Source: a bacterium (GTDB lineage Bacteria > Patescibacteriota > Saccharimonadia > Saccharimonadales > Saccharimonadaceae). From it: a DNA stretch of 64,000 nucleotides. How positions within the stretch are numbered: the first letter of the stretch is position 1; every line of letters starts with the position of its first letter. Position numbers and translations under genes: made by a program. Shown piece after piece: positions 5,162 through 64,000 of the stretch. Where the stretch lies: the NCBI GenBank assembly GCA_030431855.1, contig JAUIII010000001.1, positions 25,089 through 89,088 on the forward strand, written 5' to 3'. The notes below the pieces were generated by a model. It was not told where the DNA came from and searched no databases. It saw only the letters and a program-made list of their open reading frames with translations.

Positions 5162-6074
5162 CTGACGCCTCCTTGCTCTGATAGTATTCCATGAAGAGTT
5201 CATCGAGTGGTGTTTCGACAATTTGTAGATCGCGGATTGGCTTCATGGAAAGTACTCGCAGTAGTTCATTGTATTTACCGCGGAACACGAATTCACGGCG
5301 ATTACCAGCTTTTTTAAGCTCGGAGACGCCCTTCAGTGTTCGTAATTGCGAATCAGGAGCCACGGCGCCGTACAGTACGTTAACTCTACGTGGTGCGCTC
5401 TCCATTAGTTCTTCAAGGCTGCTTACCCGTAGCAATCTACCGTCTCGAATAAAACCAACTCTATCACAGACTGCTTGAACTTCGCTTAACACATGCGAGC
5501 TCATAAAGGTGGTTTTTCCTGCTGTTTTTCGTTCATGGATAATTTTATTAAACTCAGCCTGCACGAGAGGGTCTAAACCGCTGGTTGGCTCATCTAAAAT
5601 CAGTAGTTCTGGGTCATGCATAAGCGCTGCGACGAGTCCAATCTTTTGCCTATTACCACGAGAAAGTGACTTTATTTTTTTGTTAGTCTCGCAGCGGAGT
5701 CTCTTTAGTAGCTCGTTGACGTATTGTGTGTCGACGTTGCCGTGCACGCTAGCTGCGAACGCAAGATACTGCTTGCCGGTGAGGCTTGGGTCAGTCGCCA
5801 TGTCGCCGGATAGGTATCCGATACGTTTGCGAATATCCACACTGTCTTTGTGGCTATCCATACCAAAGATGGAAATGGTACCTTCGTTTGCATACAAAAG
5901 ATCTAAAATAACATTAATCGTAGTTGATTTACCTGCACCGTTTGGCCCCAGAAAGCCAAACACCTCACCTTTTGTAATTTCAAGAGATACATCTTCAATG
6001 CCGCGAGATTTGCCATACGACTTTGTTACTCCATCGAGCACAAGAACTGATTCAACTACCCCTTGGTTCCTCAT
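5154..6074 (-). CDS. ABC transporter ATP-binding protein
   Basis: Walker A GPNGAGKST, signature LSRGNRQK and Walker B LLILDEPTSGLD. Confidence 0.9.
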   Translation of the reverse strand: MRNQGVVESVLVLDGVTKSYGKSRGIEDVSLEITKGEVFGFLGPNGAGKSTTINVILDLLYANEGTISIFGMDSHKDSVDIRKRIGYLSGDMATDPSLTGKQYLAFAASVHGNVDTQYVNELLKRLRCETNKKIKSLSRGNRQKIGLVAALMHDPELLILDEPTSGLDPLVQAEFNKIIHERKTAGKTTFMSSHVLSEVQAVCDRVGFIRDGRLLRVSSLEELMESAPRRVNVLYGAVAPDSQLRTLKGVSELKKAGNRREFVFRGKYNELLRVLSMKPIRDLQIVETPLDELFMEYYQSKEASDV

Positions 6075-6144
6075 ACTATAAGCGTATACGTTTTATACAA
6101 GGTCTGTCAAATACGGTAGCCTATGCCGTACAATAGAAGTAGCT

Positions 6145-6852
6145 ATGCAAAAAACTTCTCGACCAATCATAGGCGTGGTGCCCTCCTTTGACGTGGGCGA
6201 AGGTCCTATTTATTTCCCTGGTCCAAAAACAGAGCGGATTTATATTCGTACGGAGTATACGCATGTCTTGACATCGGTCGGGGCCTTGCCGCTTATTCTG
6301 AGCCCTGACATGCCACTGGATATGGTGGCTGACTTATGCGATGGCGTCGTGATATCAGGAGGGTTTGACATAGACTCAACATTATATGGTGAAGACCCAG
6401 CGACAAGTGATCCAGTCGAACCGATTAAACGGTTTATGTGGGAAGAGCGACTGATTGCAGCGTGTGACGAGGCGAATGTGCCGATATTGGGCATTTGTTA
6501 TGGGATGCAGCGGCTCAATCTGTATTATGGCGGGACCTTATTCCAAGATATTAACGGTGCCGTGGCGGGCAACGTTGGCCACATGGAAACGATGCACTCG
6601 GTGCTGTTTAGGCAGAATTTCTTAGGGGTTGGCCAAGATGAAACGCGTAATATTAATTCTCGTCATCATCAAGCAGTCGATAGACTTGCTCAGGGATTTG
6701 AGATAGCCGCACTGGCGCCCGATGGAATTATTGAGGCAATGGAGGGGCGTGGACATTTTGGCATGCAGTGGCATCCAGAGTCAGATACCACTGGTATTCA
6801 TATGTATCGAGCGTTTGTGGAACATTGTGCGCACGGTGGCTTGCAAACATAA
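6145..6852 (+). CDS. Class I glutamine amidotransferase / gamma-glutamyl hydrolase (peptidase C26, PuuD-like)
   Basis: Nucleophile elbow GICYGMQ and catalytic His motif MQWHPE. Confidence 0.75.
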   Translation: MQKTSRPIIGVVPSFDVGEGPIYFPGPKTERIYIRTEYTHVLTSVGALPLILSPDMPLDMVADLCDGVVISGGFDIDSTLYGEDPATSDPVEPIKRFMWEERLIAACDEANVPILGICYGMQRLNLYYGGTLFQDINGAVAGNVGHMETMHSVLFRQNFLGVGQDETRNINSRHHQAVDRLAQGFEIAALAPDGIIEAMEGRGHFGMQWHPESDTTGIHMYRAFVEHCAHGGLQT

Positions 6853-16726: not shown

Positions 16727-17593
16727 ATGAAAAAAGGCCTTGGACGCAGTTTCGAATCGCTGATACCTGACGATTTACTGGACGAGTCGTTTGACCCAAC
16801 AGCCAATGATGACCACGCCGTAAGCGATTTGCGCACGATAAAGCTTAGCGATATTGTTCCCGACCCAGACCAGCCGCGACGCCACTTTGACCAACAGATG
16901 CTCGACGAGCTTGCTGCATCGATTCGTGAACACGGGGTATTGCAGCCTATCGTGGTGGTACCGCACAAGGGCAAGTATCAGATTGTGGCTGGCGAACGTC
17001 GCTATCGGGCAAGTGAAATGGCTGGTAAGGATACTATTCCTGCGCTGGTTCGGACACTGAGCGCACAACATAAGCTGGAACTTTCACTGATAGAAAATAT
17101 ACAGCGTCACGATCTCACACCTATTGAAACGGCTACTGCCTATGGTAAACTTCGTGATCAATTTAACTTGTCGCTTGAAGAAATTGGAAATCGCGTGGGC
17201 GGTAAATCGGTGAGCGCCGTCTCGAATACACTGCGACTACTTAAATTGCCCGCAGTAGCTAAGCAGGCTGTCGCGCGTGGTGAACTTACAGAGGGGCAGG
17301 CGCGTCCGCTTATAGGTGCTGACCCAGAACGCGTGAAGGAACTGTTGCCACAGATTATTAAAGAGGGATGGAGCTCACGTAAGATTGAGCAACTGAGTAA
17401 TCAGGTGAAGCCTGTGCTCAGGGCACGGCCAAAGAACGACCGTGTACAGTTCTTTGATGATGCAAATAAACTATCGGGCAAATTGAATACAACGGTGAGA
17501 ATTAGCGCCTCACAAAGAGGCGCTGGTACGATTTCAATCGCTTTTTCTAGTGACGAAGAGCGACAACGAATACAAAAATTACTCGAAAAGTAA
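16727..17593 (+). CDS. parB: Chromosome partitioning protein ParB/Spo0J
   Basis: ParB box IVAGERRYRAS, and an HTH region follows. Confidence 0.9.
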   Translation: MKKGLGRSFESLIPDDLLDESFDPTANDDHAVSDLRTIKLSDIVPDPDQPRRHFDQQMLDELAASIREHGVLQPIVVVPHKGKYQIVAGERRYRASEMAGKDTIPALVRTLSAQHKLELSLIENIQRHDLTPIETATAYGKLRDQFNLSLEEIGNRVGGKSVSAVSNTLRLLKLPAVAKQAVARGELTEGQARPLIGADPERVKELLPQIIKEGWSSRKIEQLSNQVKPVLRARPKNDRVQFFDDANKLSGKLNTTVRISASQRGAGTISIAFSSDEERQRIQKLLEK

Positions 17594-18190
17594 CTAGAAC
17601 GTCTGAATTTTATTGAATGGGAAAATTCGAAGACTCACTGGTCCAACGATGTCGTAGAGCGGGATGGTCCCTAGGCCGTTGCGAGAGTCCATTGAATAGC
17701 CCTCTTGGCGATGGTCACCAGCAACAAATATCTCGCCAGTAGGAACGACCATATCAACCTGGCCGTCGGTAGGCTGTTGCGGCCCTTCGGTTAATTTATC
17801 TGGGTTGAAACAGTTCAGGTTTTTATTGTCGCATACGGTAAATGCTCCATTTTTGAGCACAACGTGTTCGCCAGGAAAGGCAATTACTCGCTTGACAATA
17901 TACTCTTCACCAAGACCTGGGACATATTTAGGATTTTTAAACACGATGACATGGCCGCGTGGCGGAATATATTCCTCGTTTTTCAAGTGAGACCAGGTGA
18001 CGGGTAGGCGATTTACGATAAGTCGGTCACCAGTGTGAAGCGTATTTTCCATACTTGGCCCTTCGACATTGAAGCTACGAAACACGAAAGCATTGATAAT
18101 AAGTGTGCCCACGAGCACAAACAGAACGAACACGAGCAAGCCGAGTAAGTCTTTCACCCCTTGGTGACGTTCTAGAAATTTAGCATTCAC
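17594..18190 (-). CDS. lepB: Signal peptidase I
   Basis: N-terminal TM segment, catalytic Ser box GPSMENTL and GDHRQEGYSMDSR box. GTG start. Confidence 0.85.
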   Translation of the reverse strand: MNAKFLERHQGVKDLLGLLVFVLFVLVGTLIINAFVFRSFNVEGPSMENTLHTGDRLIVNRLPVTWSHLKNEEYIPPRGHVIVFKNPKYVPGLGEEYIVKRVIAFPGEHVVLKNGAFTVCDNKNLNCFNPDKLTEGPQQPTDGQVDMVVPTGEIFVAGDHRQEGYSMDSRNGLGTIPLYDIVGPVSLRIFPFNKIQTF

Positions 18191-25252: not shown

Positions 25253-25312
25253 ATCTGAATAATTGTAGCGTAAAGGGGTGGAAATGTCAAAGGTTAGAGT
25301 GTGTAGGTATGT

Positions 25313-25377
25313 GAGAGCCCGCCAGGAGAAGCCGTGGGCGAGGGAAGACCAATCACGGTCTTTCCCGGCGGGCTCTC
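25313..25377 (-). other. GC-rich nested inverted repeat at the 3' edge of the first high-GC cassette
   Basis: An 11-bp perfect outer stem GAGAGCCCGCC/GGCGGGCTCTC encloses an inner GGGAAGACC/GGTCTTTCCC hairpin. No T-run follows. Confidence 0.5.
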
Positions 25378-25396
25378 GTAGAGGCGGGCTGCGTGT

Positions 25397-25600
25397 TCAG
25401 GCCCTCGGACGCTTTGACGTCATGTGAACGACAGGTCCTAGGGCAAGGATCGCAGTGCCCAGGAAGACGGCTGACACTCGAGCGATGCTGATGAGGGTCG
25501 TACCGCCGTCCTTGAGCCCAGCGACCCAGACGGTAGCGGTGAGGATGCACATCGCAACAACCGCGACAGTGCACCAGACGATAAGCGCTCGTCTGCTCAC
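25397..25600 (-). CDS. Hypothetical 67-aa two-TM protein with high-GC codon usage
   Basis: GTG start with AAAGGAG about 8 nt upstream. Two hydrophobic helices. By my hand count, about 47 of 68 codons end in G/C, unlike the neighbouring genes. Confidence 0.5.
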   Translation of the reverse strand: MSRRALIVWCTVAVVAMCILTATVWVAGLKDGGTTLISIARVSAVFLGTAILALGPVVHMTSKRPRA

Positions 25601-25787
25601 GGCTTTTTCTCCTTTCGGATTTGAGTACCGGACATGAACGATGCTATTTAAACGCTTGTAGATTGTTATGTCAATGCTAGCCCTTGAAAAACAGTGGAGT
25701 TTACGCTATAATAACAGAGTAACAATTTTAACGAAGCACCGTTCGGACATATCCTATACAGGCCGAGCGGGAAGGGAGAAGGATACA

Positions 25788-26489
25788 ATGGCTACTTCAG
25801 TAGACATGAAGGCTCTATTAGAAGCCGGTGTTCATTTCGGACACAAAACCAGTCGTTGGCACCCAAAAATGGCGCCATACATTCACAGCAAGCGACAAGA
25901 TTCGCATATTATTAACCTAGAAAAGACAGTCGAAGGTCTAGAAGCGGCACTGCCATTCCTCACAAAAACTGCGGCGAGTGGTAAAAAAGTACTGTTTGTT
26001 GGTACCAAAAAGCAGCACAAAGACATTGTAAAAGCTGCTGCAGAGTCTGCTGGCCAGCCATACGTCACCGAACGCTGGATTGGTGGTATGCTGACCAACG
26101 TTTCGACTATCACTAGCCAGATCAAGAAGCTGAAAGACCTTGAAAAGCGAATGGCGAGTGGCGACCTAGAAAAGCGCTACAACAAACTAGAAGTGCAGCG
26201 CTTCCAGGAAGAAATCGATAGCCTAAACGAAAAATACAGCGGTATCAAAGACCTCAGCGGTATGCCAGGTGCGGTTGTAGTGGTAGATACACTCAGCGAT
26301 GTGAACGCTGTTCGCGAAGCAAAAAACCTAGGTATTCCAGTGGTAGGCGTGGTAGATACAAACGCAGACCCAAGCGTAATCGACTACGTAGTGCCTGGTA
26401 ACGATGACGCAATCAAAGGTACACAGCTATTGCTGGACTACTTTGTAAGTGCAGTGAAATCTGGTCTTAACAAAGAACAATCTAAATAA
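25788..26489 (+). CDS. rpsB: 30S ribosomal protein S2
   Basis: LLEAGVHFGHKTSRWHPKM is the S2 signature. GGAGAAGGA SD lies upstream of the ATG at 25788. Confidence 0.95.
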   Translation: MATSVDMKALLEAGVHFGHKTSRWHPKMAPYIHSKRQDSHIINLEKTVEGLEAALPFLTKTAASGKKVLFVGTKKQHKDIVKAAAESAGQPYVTERWIGGMLTNVSTITSQIKKLKDLEKRMASGDLEKRYNKLEVQRFQEEIDSLNEKYSGIKDLSGMPGAVVVVDTLSDVNAVREAKNLGIPVVGVVDTNADPSVIDYVVPGNDDAIKGTQLLLDYFVSAVKSGLNKEQSK

Positions 26490-52475: not shown

Positions 52476-53555
52476 ATGCAACCCCTGAAGAAAAAAGTCG
52501 AACAGCTGCTAGCTGACGTGCGTTCCGCAATGGAACGGCTCGATGTTGTGGGGAAAAAGCAACAGCTTGAAATGTTGGATAGTGAATTAGCCGTTCCGGA
52601 AATTTGGAATAATCCTGGCCATGCGCAAGATGTAAGCAAAAAGGCAGCTGCCGTGCGAGCACAACTTGAGCCATGGGAGACGCTTGCCGCGCAGCTCGGA
52701 GACATTGATGAACTGATGGAACTCGGTGACGATTCAATGTTGGGTGAATTTGAGGCGCAGGTGGCGGCATTTGAAACGCAGTATACGGACCTAAAAAAAG
52801 AACTATTATTTAACGGTGAGTTTGACGACCATAATGCAATTGTGCGTATAACCTCAGGCGTAGGTGGTACCGACGCGCAAGATTGGGCAGAAATGCTGGA
52901 GCGCATGTATCTACGTTGGGCAGAGAAAGCTGGCTTAGAAACCAAGCAGCTTGAACGCAGTACAGGCGAAGAAGCAGGCATTAAGACCAGCGTGCTAGAA
53001 GTAAATGGTAGCTATGCGTACGGAAAATTACGGAGTGAACACGGCGTGCATCGCCTAGTGCGCCTGAGCCCGTTCAATAGCGACAGCTTACGGCAAACCA
53101 GTTTTGCGCTAGTAGAAGTGTTGCCACAAATTGATGCACCCGAAGAAGTCGAGATTGATGATAAAGACCTCAAGGTGGATGTATATCGTGCGGGTGGTCA
53201 TGGTGGTCAAAGTGTGAACACTACCGATAGCGCTGTACGCGTCACTCATCTGCCCACCAATATTGTCGTAGCAATTCAGAACGAACGGAGCCAGCTACAA
53301 AACAAAGAAACCGCCATGAAGATTCTTCGCTCGAAATTGGCGCAGCTAAAGCTTGAGCAGCACGCCGAAAAGCTGAGTGATTTACAGGCGGGCGAGAGCG
53401 CCAACTGGGGCAGCCAGATACGGAACTACGTATTGCACCCGTACACATTAGTGAAAGATACACGCACAAAGTATGAAGACAAGGATACCAAGAGCGTACT
53501 TGATGGCAAGCTGGATGACTTTATGGCGAGCTACCTAGAAAACACTAGTGCATAA
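52476..53555 (+). CDS. prfB: Peptide chain release factor 2 (uninterrupted, no programmed frameshift)
   Basis: SPF tripeptide (RLSPFNS) and GGQ motif. A single continuous ORF. TGaTACAAT lies 7 nt upstream of the ATG. Confidence 0.95.
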   Translation: MQPLKKKVEQLLADVRSAMERLDVVGKKQQLEMLDSELAVPEIWNNPGHAQDVSKKAAAVRAQLEPWETLAAQLGDIDELMELGDDSMLGEFEAQVAAFETQYTDLKKELLFNGEFDDHNAIVRITSGVGGTDAQDWAEMLERMYLRWAEKAGLETKQLERSTGEEAGIKTSVLEVNGSYAYGKLRSEHGVHRLVRLSPFNSDSLRQTSFALVEVLPQIDAPEEVEIDDKDLKVDVYRAGGHGGQSVNTTDSAVRVTHLPTNIVVAIQNERSQLQNKETAMKILRSKLAQLKLEQHAEKLSDLQAGESANWGSQIRNYVLHPYTLVKDTRTKYEDKDTKSVLDGKLDDFMASYLENTSA

Positions 53556-53582
53556 GCGGTTTATGCTATAATAAGTCTAGTA

Positions 53583-59211: not shown

Positions 59212-59302
59212 AGGGTACTCCTTAAAGTTTATAAAACAATCTAGTAAATTGTACTAAACTTTTGGGCTTTTTGCAAGGGGTAGCGTATAATTATGGGTAG
59301 AT

Positions 59303-60214
59303 ATGCGCATGCAAGAAAGATGGGGGAAGACGCCGATAATCATTGTCGGTAGTGTGGTAGCGACATTGCTGCTGGTTGGCGCTGGAGCCGGTGGCTATTG
59401 GTATTGGCAGGCGCAGCAGGCAGACGAAGAGGCATCTGTATCACGCGGCGGCCCGACCGTTATTCCTCTAGCAGGCACTGAGCAAACTGACACAGAGACT
59501 GAGATAAAAGATGAAAAATCAGCCGCAAACACGCTGGTTAGCCTAGTAAAGCCACAACTGTTAGGCAAAGAGAAGCAGCCGAGTGTGAGTGGGCCGTTCG
59601 GTAAAGTCGGCGAAAACAACTTTTTTGTACGCAATGACACTTACTATGGAGCGGCAGTGGAAGGAACTAGTGAACAAGCCGCACAAACATTGGCGCTCAT
59701 CAAGAAGCAGCTAATGTTGGATAAGTACAAAGAAACTATTCGGCAAAAAGGGAGCACTACGCAGTCGTACGAAGCGCTGTTTGTGAACGATACAGTACTT
59801 TGCTTGGTATACGACATCAAGCCTACGCGTAACGACGGCAAGACAGAGGTAGGTATGTTATGTGCTGATGCTGAGCAATTCAAGGAAACGGCAAATATTT
59901 ACGAACCGTACGTCACTGCCTACAAAGATGCATCAAAGCTTGACGTGGCAAATAGGGGTTTTTACGACCTAAAAACCGCAGAGAGTCCTGTGCCCGGCTA
60001 CCGACGCGCTAGCTTGCGTATTACCGGTGAAAACCAAGACACGCAGAGCGGATATTTGGGTGTATTCTACCAAACCCCCGATGGTGTTTGGAAGTACTTT
60101 ACAAGCTCTCAAGGCATGGTGGCCTGTAGTAAATATCAAGGCACAGAGCTGCAAAATGCGTTTAAAGACGAGCCATGTGAGAAGGCGGGTGAAGTTTCGA
60201 AAGTCGGCTCATAA
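59303..60214 (+). CDS. Hypothetical membrane-anchored exported protein, paralogue A
   Basis: N-terminal TM helix. The C-terminal domain shares blocks and 4 Cys positions with the next gene (GVFYQTPDGVWKYF versus GLFYQVPDGEWQYF). Confidence 0.6.
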   Translation: MRMQERWGKTPIIIVGSVVATLLLVGAGAGGYWYWQAQQADEEASVSRGGPTVIPLAGTEQTDTETEIKDEKSAANTLVSLVKPQLLGKEKQPSVSGPFGKVGENNFFVRNDTYYGAAVEGTSEQAAQTLALIKKQLMLDKYKETIRQKGSTTQSYEALFVNDTVLCLVYDIKPTRNDGKTEVGMLCADAEQFKETANIYEPYVTAYKDASKLDVANRGFYDLKTAESPVPGYRRASLRITGENQDTQSGYLGVFYQTPDGVWKYFTSSQGMVACSKYQGTELQNAFKDEPCEKAGEVSKVGS

Positions 60215-60274
60215 ATACTGCTATTGTTTATTTTCAGCCGACGACGCATAATAAGCCTGAAATAGGAGTATCGC

Positions 60275-61261
60275 ATGGAAGACAAGAAAGATATGCAGCC
60301 TCGTGATGAGGAAATGCCAGGCACTGAACAGATTGATGAATCTGAACAAATGCCAAAACAGGTAACCGAGAGCACGCCTATGTCTCTAGAAAAGCCACCG
60401 AAAGCGCGCAAGCCATTCAAGGCATTAATGGCCGTTGGTGCTTTGCTGTTAGTTGCGCTTGCGGGACTTGTGTATTATTTCTTTTTTATGCCAACAAAAG
60501 CTCCAGCTGCTACTAACAGTGGTGCAAAGCCAGCTACCAAGCAGGAGGTCTTGACCGCAGCGGGGCAGGTGATAGCAGACATGAAAACTAAGCTTGAGGG
60601 TACGGTGAAAGATACCGATACAAGTGGACCAGCATTTCAGCCTAGTGGTTACGAATTTTGGGTCCAACCTTCGACGTATTATGGTGTTATTGCAACCAGT
60701 TCGACAGATGTACTGGTAAAAAACCTCGATATGGTAGACACATACTTTACAGACAAAGACTATAATGTCGCACAGGCAGACCCTCAGGCTGATTTTCCGC
60801 TAAACAAAGAAATTACGTATGATAGCAAAGAAGTGGTGTGCGGTATCACGAGTTATGACCCACCACAAGGCGATGCGAGTGATCCGTGGATGAATGTTGT
60901 ATGTGAGGACATGAGTGACATTCTTGCTACGGCGAAAGAGGCTGAGCCGTTTGCTGTGGTGTACGCAGCGTCAACGAATGAGCCACTAGCGGACACATCA
61001 TTTAGCCAAGTGGTGATTGATGAAAGCCCCGTTGAGGGGTACAGGAACGCGACAGTGGCTATAAGCCAATCGGGATTTGGTAGGGTGGGCGGCTTTGCCG
61101 GGTTGTTCTATCAAGTGCCAGATGGTGAATGGCAATATTTTAAAGGCACGCAAGAAACTGTCGACTGCAAGGAATATAATACAGATGATTTGAAAAAGGC
61201 ATTTGCGAGCCAAAATTGCTACGACTCTGAAAGCAATACGTCGAGCGCTATAGAGCCTTAA
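60275..61261 (+). CDS. Hypothetical membrane-anchored exported protein, paralogue B
   Basis: Acidic N-terminal tail, a TM helix, and a domain alignable to 59303..60214. AGGAG SD present. Confidence 0.6.
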   Translation: MEDKKDMQPRDEEMPGTEQIDESEQMPKQVTESTPMSLEKPPKARKPFKALMAVGALLLVALAGLVYYFFFMPTKAPAATNSGAKPATKQEVLTAAGQVIADMKTKLEGTVKDTDTSGPAFQPSGYEFWVQPSTYYGVIATSSTDVLVKNLDMVDTYFTDKDYNVAQADPQADFPLNKEITYDSKEVVCGITSYDPPQGDASDPWMNVVCEDMSDILATAKEAEPFAVVYAASTNEPLADTSFSQVVIDESPVEGYRNATVAISQSGFGRVGGFAGLFYQVPDGEWQYFKGTQETVDCKEYNTDDLKKAFASQNCYDSESNTSSAIEP

Positions 61262-61320
61262 TCGTCTTTGTATCTGCGTTTGGAACAGGTAACTAACTAA
61301 AAAAGAAGCCAAAAAAGAGT

Positions 61321-61352
61321 CGAGCCCCGCGCCACACGGGGAGCGGGGCTCG
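61321..61352 (-). terminator. GC-rich intrinsic terminator of the second high-GC cassette
   Basis: 10-bp stem CGAGCCCCGC/GCGGGGCTCG with a 12-nt loop, followed on the minus strand by ACTCTTTTTT. Confidence 0.65.
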
Positions 61353-61369
61353 ACCGGTGGGGTACGGGG

Positions 61370-61720
61370 CTAGAGAGCGGGCGAGAGGATGACCGTGAAG
61401 TCGAGTCCGAGCCTCACGCCCGTGTAGGTGATGATGACACCCTTCAGGTCGCGCAGGTGCTTGTCCAGCGTCTTCGCCACGAACTCAAGAGCGCTGTGGG
61501 TGTCGTCGCGGCCGAGGATCTTCTGGAGGACCTCGGTCTCGTGGGCGTCCGTGACCACGAAGCGCTCGTTGGCCTCCAGATGGATCAGCCAGGGCTCACC
61601 GAGGTTCTCCCTCGACGCACCGTAGCGGGCGAGAGCGGCGTAGTAGCAGGCAAATACGTAGTGCTTGGCTGCCTCGAACCTCTCGTCGCTCGCAGCGTCG
61701 GCGAAACTGTACTCTGACAT
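61370..61720 (-). CDS. Hypothetical 116-aa soluble protein with very high GC3 codon usage
   Basis: AAGGAG lies 7 nt upstream of the ATG. By my hand count, about 100 of 117 codons end in G/C. No recognised motif. Confidence 0.6.
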   Translation of the reverse strand: MSEYSFADAASDERFEAAKHYVFACYYAALARYGASRENLGEPWLIHLEANERFVVTDAHETEVLQKILGRDDTHSALEFVAKTLDKHLRDLKGVIITYTGVRLGLDFTVILSPAL

Positions 61721-61740
61721 GTGTCATCTCCTTGGAAGGT

Positions 61741-61763
61741 TCGTCGGCTCTTCTAGCCGACGA
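61741..61763 (-). other. GC-rich hairpin at the 5' edge of the second high-GC cassette
   Basis: 9-bp stem TCGTCGGCT/AGCCGACGA with a 5-nt loop. No U-run on either strand. Confidence 0.4.
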
Positions 61764-61836
61764 GAGTCGACAAAACAAAGCCTGATAAATATATTATATC
61801 AAAAATAGTAAGAAAAGTCAATACTTCACTTAATTC

Positions 61837-62991
61837 CTATACTTTTCTGAGCACCAACAGCTCGCGGGCCACTACCTGGTCTTCCCGGTAGTACAGCAAG
61901 TCGGTCGCCTTTGCATGACGAAGCAAGATTTGTTGATAGCCAAGCGTGCCTAGGCTATTTACCAGGGGTAAATGTGTCAGCCGACCAGATTTGTCACGCC
62001 AAGCGGGTACGGCTAAACAAAGCGGCGTACCGCTTTCTAGTTGTGGGCCGATATTTTGTAGAAACTTTGAAATGATTTCGTTACAATTACGCTGCACCTG
62101 CGCCAGTTTATCTGGTGATGGCGGAGCAGAGAATGGTTGGCCGAGATAAGTTTCGGCCACAACTGCGTCGATAGGCGGCTGCCATTTGGTTTCGATGGCG
62201 TCACCATGGTGGATTGTTACGTTGACATCTACGCCAAATTTGTCTGCCAGCCACTTCATATTTGCGGTAGAATAATCGACCATCTTTTCTGATAGGTCAG
62301 TGCCGTAGACATCGAAGCCAAGCAAGGCTGCTTCCTGCAGTACAACACCAGTGCCACAGAATGGGTCTAGTACTCTGCCTTTTGTAGCTCCTGACATGTT
62401 TATCATCATCAATGCCAGTTTCGGTGGTAGCATACCCACGAATGCATCGGTTTTTGGTCTGGCTTGGTCCCGTGCGGCGTATGCATCAATATTTTGCACA
62501 CCAGAAACTTGTCCAAGCAGCGTGGTAGATCCACTGCGCACAAAGACGAGCTCCATACCGAGCTCACTTGTCAGGCTGTTGTGGAGCGTCTGTGCGCTCG
62601 AGAGACTAGGCGAGGTGTTTGGCACAACCCTCACAGATCGCCCCGACTTTTTAATCGCCGTCTTCAAGCTTAGTGCATTTGCCTGTATCTTAGCGAGCGG
62701 CATGTCGAGCCCGTACAAGCTAACGCCAAGTTTGATTTTTCCCTCTGGCCGCATGGCAGCGTGCTTTGGCAGTTCGCGGCGGCAATAATCGAACACTTTT
62801 TGTGGGTTCGTTGTGTCGAGCTCGGTCAAAAGGGTGGCGACTTTTATGGTACCACCAAGTGTATCAATGTCGACTTCCGCATCTACTACCGCAAAGTCGC
62901 TGCCAACTAGCTGCAAGGCATCAGCACCATATTTCATTTCTAGCTCTGCAATACCAAGCTGTGGCTGCCGACCAAGTAAACATATATTCAT
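61837..62991 (-). CDS. Class I SAM-dependent methyltransferase (Trm11/RlmL-like, putative RNA methyltransferase)
   Basis: SAM motif I LDPFCGTGVVLQEAALLGFDVYGTDL, with an N-terminal non-catalytic domain. TATACT lies 7 nt upstream of the ATG. Confidence 0.65.
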   Translation of the reverse strand: MNICLLGRQPQLGIAELEMKYGADALQLVGSDFAVVDAEVDIDTLGGTIKVATLLTELDTTNPQKVFDYCRRELPKHAAMRPEGKIKLGVSLYGLDMPLAKIQANALSLKTAIKKSGRSVRVVPNTSPSLSSAQTLHNSLTSELGMELVFVRSGSTTLLGQVSGVQNIDAYAARDQARPKTDAFVGMLPPKLALMMINMSGATKGRVLDPFCGTGVVLQEAALLGFDVYGTDLSEKMVDYSTANMKWLADKFGVDVNVTIHHGDAIETKWQPPIDAVVAETYLGQPFSAPPSPDKLAQVQRNCNEIISKFLQNIGPQLESGTPLCLAVPAWRDKSGRLTHLPLVNSLGTLGYQQILLRHAKATDLLYYREDQVVARELLVLRKV

Positions 62992-63037: not shown

Positions 63038-64000
63038 ATGTCTGTACGCAAAACGCTGAGTGTGGTTACCGCTATTTTGCTGGTAATTATCATATTTCTA
63101 TCGAGGCACGAAATCGCTGCTGCGTGGCGGCTGTTAGGACAGGTCAATTTGTGGATATTGTTGCTGCTGATTCCAGTACAGATTTTTTCCTACTACAGCG
63201 CGGCGGAGATTGGCTTTTCGTATTTACGGGCTAAAAAATCTATTCAAGACATACCTCGCAGAACTCTCACGCGCCTGGCGCTTGAAATGAATTTCGTGAA
63301 TCACATACTGCCTAGCGCGGGGGTAAGCGGCATTTCGTATATGTCGTGGCGCTTGAGTGGGTTTGGCCTCAGTGCGGGCAAGGCAACCATGTCGCAGATT
63401 GTTCGCTTTGTGATGGGCTTTATCGCGTTTACAGTACTCTTGATTCCGTCGGTGTTTGCCATCACGGTAGATGGCTCGATTAACCGCTGGATTATTTTGG
63501 GAAGTAGTGGCTTTGTGAGTGCGATGATAGGCCTGACACTAGGCAGTATCTTCATTCTGAGTAGTAAAAAACGCATGCACGCCATGGCTTCATTCATGAC
63601 AAATACGGCAAATGCAATTATGCGGCGTGTATTCCCGCGCTCGAAAAAGCGGTTGAAGCAATCAAAACTGAATGAATTTTTCGATGATATGCACGATGAT
63701 TTCGTGATTCTACGCGCAGATAGGAAAATTCTTGTGCGGCCATTTTGGTGGGCAATAGCCTTTACTATTAGTGACATGATGCTGTTTTGGGTAACTTTCC
63801 TGGCGCTGGGGCACACGGTCAACATCGCGGCGATATTGGTGGCGTATGGTCTGGCTATTATCTTGGCCGTGGTGGCTTTTACGCCAGGCGGTGCCGGTGT
63901 GCTGGAAACAGTGATGGTAACGGTGCTAGCACTCGCTGGTATCGAGCCAAGCGTGGCGCTTGCAGGCGTGCTATTGACACGTGTGATTACGCTGCTGGGC
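63038..64000 (+). CDS. Flippase-like / lysylphosphatidylglycerol-synthase TM-region family membrane protein (UPF0104-like); the 3' end lies outside the window
   Basis: This ORF is not in the track because it has no stop in the window. My own translation from the ATG at 63038 gives 321 uninterrupted codons (MSVRKTLSVVTAILLVIIIFLSRHEIAAAW...FTPGGAGVLETVMV) with many TM helices. TGTATAAT lies 8 nt upstream. Confidence 0.7.
   Translation, partial: MSVRKTLSVVTAILLVIIIFLSRHEIAAAWRLLGQVNLWILLLLIPVQIFSYYSAAEIGFSYLRAKKSIQDIPRRTLTRLALEMNFVNHILPSAGVSGISYMSWRLSGFGLSAGKATMSQIVRFVMGFIAFTVLLIPSVFAITVDGSINRWIILGSSGFVSAMIGLTLGSIFILSSKKRMHAMASFMTNTANAIMRRVFPRSKKRLKQSKLNEFFDDMHDDFVILRADRKILVRPFWWAIAFTISDMMLFWVTFLALGHTVNIAAILVAYGLAIILAVVAFTPGGAGVLETVMVTVLALAGIEPSVALAGVLLTRVITLLG

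Follow-up and report, generated by a model that had tools for sequence, protein, structure and literature searches.

The window analyzed here, a stretch of 64,000 nucleotides (nt) of a Saccharibacteria genome (contig JAUIII010000001.1, positions 25,089 to 89,088), carries on its minus strand a small GC-rich open reading frame (ORF), 61370..61720, encoding an orphan protein of 116 amino acids (aa). This ORF is probably the insert now occupying an expression slot that is limited to one clade and whose coding part is hypervariable, exchangeable and persistently rich in G and C at the third codon positions. Cassettes built on the same regulatory frame were identified in five other Saccharibacteria contigs, and two contigs of a single species differ only in one sharply bounded block, which corresponds to the coding sequence of the cassette. 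An earlier note on this DNA had interpreted the ORF as a recent acquisition from a high-GC donor, perhaps an actinobacterial host. Strong compositional anomalies are normally read as signs of recent horizontal transfer, but that reading fails for this cassette: the anomaly appears to be a stable trait shared by interchangeable small genes of ultra-small epibiotic bacteria, all held within one conserved regulatory frame, which argues for caution in detecting horizontal gene transfer (HGT) from composition alone.

Composition and architecture of the GC-rich unit

The GC content of ORF 61370..61720 is 0.63 overall, with values of 0.63, 0.39 and 0.87 at the first (GC1), second (GC2) and third (GC3) codon positions, respectively. 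The codons ending in G or C number 101 out of 116, close to the approximately 100 out of 117 counted by hand in the earlier note. The comparison set, consisting of the 61 other ORFs in the window that do not overlap and reach 90 aa or more, has a GC3 of 0.480 ± 0.043 with a maximum of 0.59, and ORF 61370..61720 ranks first against it (z = 9.0). The GC profile over 300 nt peaks at 0.64 across positions 61300–61700, with values of about 0.48 on either side, so that the compositional contrast with the surroundings described previously was confirmed by computation. At the four-fold degenerate sites, the frequencies are 0.51 (C), 0.29 (G), 0.14 (T) and 0.07 (A), as opposed to a near-even background. 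The anomaly is confined to GC3, GC1 and GC2 being host-like. The product is acidic (isoelectric point, pI, 5.3), with a single cysteine (Cys25) and neither a signal peptide nor a transmembrane segment.

The ORF belongs to a unit running from promoter to terminator, lying between a methyltransferase gene (MTase) and a pair of paralogous genes, par2 and par1. The features of this unit, including its 5' untranslated region (UTR), its ribosome-binding site (RBS) and its coding sequence (CDS), are the following:

61262..61836, minus strand: whole accessory unit, from the MTase stop codon (61837) to the par2 stop codon (61261), based on empty-site alignments
61719..61826, minus strand: conserved 5' chassis (promoter, 5' UTR and RBS), based on the alignment with contig L083 and the nhmmer profile
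61793..61821, minus strand: promoter, with the -35 box TTGACT (61821-61816), a 17-nt spacer and the extended -10 box TGATATAAT (61801-61793), based on a promoter scan
61741..61763, minus strand: 5'-UTR hairpin, with a 9-bp stem (61741-61749/61755-61763) and a 5-nt loop, based on an inverted-repeat search and folding
61728..61733, minus strand: Shine-Dalgarno sequence AAGGAG, 7 nt before the ATG, based on the sequence
61370..61720, minus strand: CDS of 116 aa, variable insert of the cassette, based on the sequence, the ORF list and the composition
61297..61375, minus strand: conserved 3' chassis, consisting of the stop codon and CCCCG..., then the intrinsic terminator, based on the L083 and six-cassette alignments
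61319-61354, minus strand: terminator, with a perfect 13-bp stem (61319-61331/61342-61354) and a U-run (61310-61317), based on the fold

The promoter (61821..61793) matches 11 of the 12 consensus positions and has a TG preceding the -10 box, and the terminator hairpin (GGTCGAGCCCCGC...GCGGGGCTCGAC, then TCTTTTTT) has a folding energy of -33.3 kcal/mol (z = -4.7 versus shuffled sequences). The Shine-Dalgarno sequence, the 9-bp hairpin and the GC-rich hairpin followed by a T-run had all been pointed out previously and were recovered here, and the description of a self-contained single-gene unit holds with the promoter, RBS and terminator that it possesses. The A/T-rich stretch 61766..61836, which had been placed outside the unit, in fact holds its extended -10 promoter. 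The cassette is monocistronic, without any adjacent partner gene. With its near-consensus promoter, 5' hairpin, strong RBS and strong terminator, the unit looks as if it were built for strong constitutive expression. The 5' UTR gave no match at or near the gathering score in Rfam.

A family of cassettes with a conserved chassis

A word-indexed search among 5.8 billion clusters matched the 116-aa protein with itself alone, while an exhaustive phmmer search among 1.84 billion cluster representatives (standing for about 15 billion proteins) yielded a single homolog, P0002, a collinear protein of 115 aa showing 30% identity (library-wide E = 4e-7; pairwise BLASTP E = 1e-15). P0002 is encoded in contig L083, which belongs to the sister sub-clade of the window, in the order MTase, P0002, par1, L27, and its GC3 is 0.72 versus approximately 0.49 for its neighbors. 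The proteins encoded by the neighboring genes are 48–96% identical between the window and L083, the orphan being the most diverged. The DNA alignment of the two units gave the following values, from 5' to 3':

18 nt from the MTase stop to the -35 box: 7/18 identical (39%)
-35 box to ATG: 90/106 identical (85%)
CDS: 173/335 identical (52%)
Stop codon to U-run: 55/63 identical (87%)
Spacer 3' of the U-run: 13/32 identical

An nhmmer profile of the terminator gave four further matches, each located directly 3' of a small unannotated GC3-rich ORF:

L086, 2078-2422: insert of 114 aa, GC3 0.67
L088, 1995-2363: insert of 122 aa, GC3 0.86
L003, 6058-6417: insert of 119 aa, GC3 0.83
L004, 11300-11653: insert of 117 aa, GC3 0.59

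Across the six cassettes, the conservation of the chassis amounts to 85–100%, as against an aa identity of 19–43% between the inserts, the length of which ranges only from 114 to 122 aa. The extended -10 promoter TGnTnTAAT is kept in all six, and the RBS AGGAG in five of them; the six-sequence profile matches the 5' chassis of the window at E = 5e-21. All six also carry a 3' element composed of the stop codon, (C)GCCCCGC...GGTCGAGCCCCGCTCC, a loop, GGGGCTCGA and a U-run, with 35 invariant columns in the alignment; the consensus structure predicted by RNAalifold for the terminator is an 18-pair stem. In the 5'-UTR hairpin, the 3' arm GCCGACGA is almost invariant in all the cassettes. Since only two of the seven consensus pairs predicted by RNAalifold show compensatory changes and several pairs are broken, the covariation is weak and the conservation of this hairpin is mainly at the sequence level. 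The raised GC3 is common to all six inserts, GC1 and GC2 being like those of host genes. The z values of insert GC3 against the respective loci are 9.1, 8.5, 12.6, 5.0 and 3.6, and the insert ranks first in its own locus except in L083, where one unrelated GC-rich insertion has a higher value. When profiles of the six flanks were run against 1.48 Mb of sequence (about 95 related loci), they found the six units and the copies of the window's unit in the Logan assemblies and nothing else, so that the family is confined to a narrow clade of Saccharibacteria.

These observations bear on the idea of an artifact, in the form of a chimeric assembly or of a non-coding RNA gene whose GC richness gives rise to a spurious ORF. 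In favor of this idea, the source genome was assembled from a metagenome, long ORFs arise by chance in GC-rich DNA, and several overlapping ORFs are present in other frames across the region. Assemblies from two different runs, however, span both junctions: those in Logan of SRR24442554 (window 60520-61780) and SRR24442558 (window 60847-62066), which originate from a biofloc aquaculture metagenome (PMC10582022), are 100% identical to the window, and a chimera at the junctions is therefore very unlikely. The strong codon periodicity, the consistent placement of the RBS, start and stop relative to the conserved flanks in six genomes, the narrow range of lengths, the collinear alignment with P0002 and the lack of any Rfam match also speak against an artifact, which in our opinion is scarcely credible.

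Short pieces of the chassis were also searched for elsewhere. A 20-mer from the UTR/RBS region had two matches in the JGI metagenomes, in contigs with a GC content of 62% and beside unrelated genes, which is about the number estimated to occur by chance, and none in IMG/VR. One exact 20-nt match, CCGACGAACCTTCCAAGGAG, is located in L084 (2570-2589, minus strand), a contig of 62% GC, just before the start codon of an unrelated ORF, an RBS context that is curious for a chance match. A 17-mer from the terminator had four matches in IMG/VR, in contigs of 58–67% GC and without the hairpin partner. The matches of both oligomers were taken to be due to chance.

Distribution at two loci and replacement of the insert

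The flanking MTase places the window in the Saccharibacteria, as had been suspected; the best GTDB species representative shows 73% aa identity, and nothing closer was found in the databases. The gene order LPG-synthase/MTase/L27 is conserved throughout the Saccharibacteria, and the MTase, L27, S41 peptidase, FtsEX and ExoVII genes are neighbors in conserved synteny. A small clade carries the membrane-protein gene par1 at the MTase–L27 junction. Pairwise identities delimit a clade A, comprising the window and the closely similar L003 and L088, and a clade B, comprising L083 and the closely similar L086 and L087; L004 is an outgroup. Between the MTase and the par genes, the complete promoter-to-terminator unit is present in the window and in L083, whereas the MTase and par1 stop codons overlap or are at most 22 nt apart in L003, L088, L086 and L087. 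The edges of the unit were set by aligning these empty sites with the two filled ones. This distribution indicates that the unit is accessory, as the earlier note had proposed, and it is indeed absent from the nearest sampled relatives, L003 and L088. The synteny with relatives gives a mixed picture, however, since the site is empty in L003/L088 and L086/L087 but filled in L083 and in L004.

The cassettes occupy two loci. Locus 1, between the MTase and par/L27, is filled in the window, L083 and L004, and empty in L086/L087, L003 and L088, so that one member of each sub-clade carries the cassette and its nearest relatives do not. Locus 2 lies some 3.5 kb upstream of the MTase, between a histidine kinase gene and a gene encoding 224 aa; it is filled in L086, L088 and L003, and empty in L083, L004, L005 and L006. 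Exactly one of the two loci is filled in each of the five contigs in which both are visible. The distribution of the cassettes is patchy relative to the phylogeny. No target-site duplication or terminal repeat was detected at the indel of either locus in the alignments of empty and filled sites.

Exchange is indicated by L003 and L088, which belong to one species, their DNA being 95.5% identical along 1986 nt and 97.0% along 5904 nt. A single block, L003 6053-6391, sets them apart; there, the identity in 40-nt windows drops to 0.30–0.53, as against 0.85–1.00 on both sides. The block starts 5 nt ahead of the CDS 6058-6417 and stops about 25 nt short of its stop codon, and the two insert proteins are only 27–29% identical. 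Between the L003 insert protein and its counterpart in L086, a member of clade B, the identity is 43%, so that the relationships between inserts conflict, in this small sample, with the phylogeny of the genomes: L003 is nearer to L086 than to the conspecific L088. Since vertical divergence cannot yield such a sharp-edged block in DNA that is 95.5–97% identical, the difference represents the replacement of an allele or cassette within a chassis that has stayed constant. Replacement between conspecifics requires donors with the same flanks, which points to related Saccharibacteria as the donors.

The inserts appear to form at least two groups without any detectable mutual homology: the proteins encoded at locus 1 (window and L083) and those encoded at locus 2 gave an hhalign probability of 0.1%, and the match between the L004 insert and group 1 is marginal (hhalign E = 0.028).

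Age of the cassette and origin of the high GC3

The interpretation as one gene recently imported into this lineage alone from a high-GC source, perhaps an actinobacterial host, and not yet ameliorated in composition, has several points in its favor. The GC3 and the frequencies of C and G at four-fold sites resemble those of a high-GC genome, and the unit is missing in the nearest relatives. Actinobacteria are the cultivated hosts of Saccharibacteria (PMC10633639), and Actinobacteriota are present in the source community (PMC10582022). Actinobacteria-like gene flow moreover occurs in the clade, as exemplified by a ClpC1 N-domain gene in L083, and the occurrence of a GC-rich accessory gene in a Saccharibacteria genome of about 48% GC is what transfer from host to epibiont would produce. 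This view nevertheless meets with serious difficulties. In L083 the same site harbors a homologous ORF with a similarly raised GC3, a finding of the kind that, according to the earlier note, would defeat its claim, and in L004 it harbors a cassette with a homologous chassis. A comparison of four-fold sites between the window and L083 gave an identity of 0.38 for the orphan and of 0.32–0.37 for the neighboring genes; because these sites are saturated in the orphan just as in its neighbors, the two copies are at least as old as the split between clades A and B. No homolog of the 116-aa protein was found in any high-GC organism among the 1.84 billion representatives, where the Saccharibacteria protein P0002 was the only relative, nor did the phage, plasmid and IMG/VR searches give any. 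The deviation is absent from GC1 and GC2, the trait is common to a whole family with a native chassis, the A/T-rich promoter and the rest of this chassis being shared with five other Saccharibacteria contigs, and the replacement between conspecifics requires relatives rather than Actinobacteria as donors. Neither the recent date nor the high-GC donor put forward in the earlier note is thus supported by the data, and we consider a recent import improbable.

Another interpretation is that the cassette had a single ancient origin or acquisition and then evolved fast but purely vertically, with conserved signals and repeated loss or duplication of slots, without any lateral exchange. That locus 1 is occupied in L004, the outgroup, as well as in the two sub-clades fits an ancestral slot, the neighboring gene par1 is also fast-evolving (48–54% identity to its orthologs), and the synonymous divergence of the orphan pair equals that of the neighbors. 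On the other hand, this scenario requires at least three precise losses and does not account for the knife-edge boundaries of the block distinguishing L003 from L088 or for the greater proximity of the L003 insert to that of L086. Neutral drift at saturation would, in addition, be expected to bring GC3 to approximately 0.48 rather than 0.72–0.87. Purely vertical descent therefore strikes us as unlikely, although it deserves some weight.

All six inserts being GC3-rich, and the values in the window and in L083 being 0.87 and 0.72 despite synonymous saturation, we infer that the high GC3 is a maintained property of the gene pool and not the remnant of a recent import in the course of fading. The cassette family might nonetheless have come from a foreign source in the first place. 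Two hypothetical causes might be put forward, namely selection on the mRNA and GC-biased gene conversion (gBGC) at a recombination hot spot. To our knowledge, the effects of gBGC reported in bacteria are far smaller than a shift in GC3 from 0.48 to 0.87, and the range from 0.59 to 0.87 in the cassettes, versus about 0.48, likewise far exceeds its genome-wide effects. Conversion also needs a heteroduplex between similar alleles, whereas the cassette inserts are almost unalignable. On the other side, gBGC, which has been reported in bacteria (PMC4450053), would link frequent recombination at the slot with a gain of GC specifically at synonymous sites. The cassettes provide a natural test case for deciding between biased gene conversion and mRNA selection as the force by which, in a genome of 48% GC, synonymous sites are kept at about 85% GC.

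Probable exchange of inserts and comparison with known systems

In the scheme that we consider probable, a fixed chassis, comprising the extended -10 promoter, the hairpin UTR, the strong RBS and the GC-rich terminator, would drive the expression of a cytoplasmic protein of 114–122 aa. The inserts, and sometimes whole slots, would be swapped among related Saccharibacteria by natural transformation followed by homologous recombination in the conserved flanks, and diversifying or frequency-dependent selection would keep the inserts diverse. Natural competence exists in Saccharibacteria, where comEC-dependent homologous recombination integrates DNA into the genome, as shown experimentally between convergent ORFs (PMC10633639); flank-mediated recombination after transformation would therefore be the simplest route for the exchange of inserts. 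If this model is correct, the slot constitutes a compact hypervariable locus in Saccharibacteria, and it could be directly manipulated, since these bacteria are naturally transformable.

Several points weigh against an exchangeable slot of this kind. The sample consists of six cassettes from five species-level lineages, and the count of one filled slot per genome excludes that of the window, where the sequence ends before locus 2. The clean swap of a CDS was seen at locus 2 and not at locus 1, the one occupied in the window. A cysteine at residues 25–30, following aromatic residues, was noticed by eye in all six inserts; because of this shared position and the similar lengths, all the inserts might derive from one ancestor by extreme divergence. 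The large-database search for donors covers the orphan of the window and not the group-2 inserts, for which a high-GC source is possible. The modest size of gBGC effects in bacteria and the lack of any match with a specific function in the family, structure and defense databases also belong here.

A small site-specific mobile element or integron-like cassette, the recombinase of which would be encoded elsewhere and the 3' hairpin of which would serve as the recombination site, was also considered. As with attC/VCR repeats, unrelated small orphan ORFs each precede a highly conserved imperfect palindrome; the same module occurs at two chromosomal sites, and its presence or absence as a whole unit is clean-edged. 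Integrase-lacking solitary or clustered attC sites are known as SALIN and CALIN, respectively. Unlike integron cassettes, which are promoterless and transcribed from Pc, the present ones have their own extended -10 promoter, and each of them is solitary rather than arrayed. Their hairpin, which is followed by a U-run, resembles a canonical intrinsic terminator. No attC core (RYYYAAC...GTTRRRY) was seen by inspection 3' of the ORF at the ends of the hairpin, no dedicated attC model having been run. No integrase domain was found among the genes called within 10 kb on either side in L083, L086 and L088, the 64-kb window not being fully annotated, and no transposase was found in the neighborhoods inspected. 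The indels lack target-site duplications, and the breakpoints between L003 and L088 are at the CDS edges within the unit instead of the unit ends. A mobile element of this type is, in view of these findings, very improbable.

The earlier note had reported no integrase, transposase or flanking direct repeats. The first two are not evident in the neighborhoods inspected, but an 8-bp direct repeat, AGAGTCGA, does bracket the GC-rich block (61316-61323 and 61763-61770). As a target-site duplication it was rejected, since it does not coincide with the actual edges of the indel and the L083 cassette does not share it, and it is probably due to chance.

Phage morons constitute a further term of comparison. 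Like them, the cassette consists of one accessory gene that has a promoter and a terminator to itself, inserted between unrelated genes, with a deviant composition and a patchy distribution. Unlike them, it is located in a core chromosomal context (tRNA/DNA methyltransferase, L27 and FtsEX) and not in a prophage, and it has no PHROG, phage or IMG/VR match. Morons have been described as autonomous transcription units inserted between existing genes (PMC3594210). They are not known to combine exchangeable coding inserts with a promoter and a terminator conserved as a chassis.

Replacement flexible genomic islands and hypervariable allelic loci, such as O-antigen or glycosylation islands and pherotype or bacteriocin-immunity loci, are usually explained by flank-mediated homologous recombination and frequency-dependent selection. 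They resemble the cassette in that conspecifics carry non-homologous or nearly non-homologous sequences at the same site within conserved flanks, with alleles shared across species and an atypical composition. The cassette differs from these islands in being a single ORF of about 350 bp and not a multi-gene island, in that its conserved flanks are the gene's own UTRs rather than neighboring genes, in the upward shift of its composition at third codon positions only, and in its two alternative sites, which are apparently mutually exclusive.

A stronger version of exchange, which we regard as distinctly unlikely, would be an undescribed cassette-exchange system actively replacing the insert of the slot with unrelated small genes drawn from a pool common to the whole population, in which the extreme GC3 would be functional or mechanistic. 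The inserts might then be sourced from, or codon-tuned to, a high-GC actinobacterial host, as a host-directed effector or immunity repertoire, or else a mechanism of GC-biased diversification or conversion might be targeted to the slot.

Possible function of the inserts

The earlier note had recognized no motif in the orphan, and the searches run here came up equally empty. Neither the orphan nor the five other inserts gave any match in Pfam, NCBIfam or PADLOC, and the searches of the same proteins in PHROGs, like the profile searches in the PDB, yielded nothing below E of about 0.02. The AlphaFold2 model of the orphan, built from an alignment of two sequences, is poor (predicted local distance difference test score, pLDDT, of 57.7), and its best Foldseek match in the PDB has E = 3. 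The insert products have no signal peptide or transmembrane segment, and their pI ranges from 5.3 to 9.7.

Hypervariable loci usually mark conflicts between strains, with phages or with hosts. Because hypervariability, patchiness, allele sharing across species and a single filled slot are typical of conflict loci, a conflict-type role, belonging to the immunity, anti-toxin, anti-defense or strain-recognition class, may be tentatively suggested, although we hold it to be doubtful. In the model of exchangeable inserts, the protein might accordingly act as an immunity, anti-toxin or anti-defense factor, or as a factor of interaction with the host or with other strains.

Neighboring genes and other GC-rich features

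In L083, a GC-rich gene (17328-18002, minus strand; GC 0.61, GC3 0.74), called as encoding 224 aa but probably 207 aa from MFERF, specifies a homolog of the ClpC1 N-terminal domain, the best PDB matches of which are actinobacterial ClpC1 N-domains (E = 4.5e-46). The gene is inserted immediately before the ftsE promoter, at a place where only about 38 bp are present in the window (53525-53563), and it looks like a genuine single-gene acquisition of the actinobacterial type.

The window contains one other GC-rich island, at 25300-25610 (GC up to 0.64 over 200 nt), between rpmE/L31 (24926-25252, minus strand) and rpsB/S2 (25668-26489, plus strand). It includes a hydrophobic ORF of 67 aa (25397-25600, minus strand; GC 0.61, GC3 0.70) with a GTG start and AAAGGAG upstream, after which comes a long GC-rich inverted repeat, GAGAGCCCGCC...GGCGGGCTCTC (approximately 25313-25378). 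The island has no Rfam or tRNA match, and the 67-aa protein has no identical entry in the collection. As a possible silent donor copy, this island was discarded, since it is unrelated to the chassis of the cassette.

The paralogous genes par1 (59303-60214) and par2 (60275-61261), which together span 59303-61261 in the window, encode fast-evolving, N-terminally anchored proteins. None of L083, L003, L086 and L088 contains a counterpart of par2, the gene that separates the cassette from par1, for which reason par2 appears to be a duplication or insertion specific to the lineage of the window. Upstream of the MTase, an ORF of 174 aa (63301-63825, minus strand) is probably a spurious antisense ORF; the genuine gene at this place is the plus-strand LPG_synthase_TM homolog (63038-64000), which runs past the end of the window and is 56% identical to its ortholog in L083.

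More generally, the MTase–L27 junction (59212-61836 in the window, and in contigs from L003 to L092) is a hot spot of insertion in Saccharibacteria. The spacing between the two genes varies from about 10–100 bp (in L018, L013 and L021, for example) up to 1–2 kb. The inserts consist of par1-like genes in L003, L023, L083 and L086, of a gene encoding a holin_4_2/phosphodiesterase protein of 652–655 aa in L089 and L092, and of uncharacterized sequences in L005, L011 and L017.

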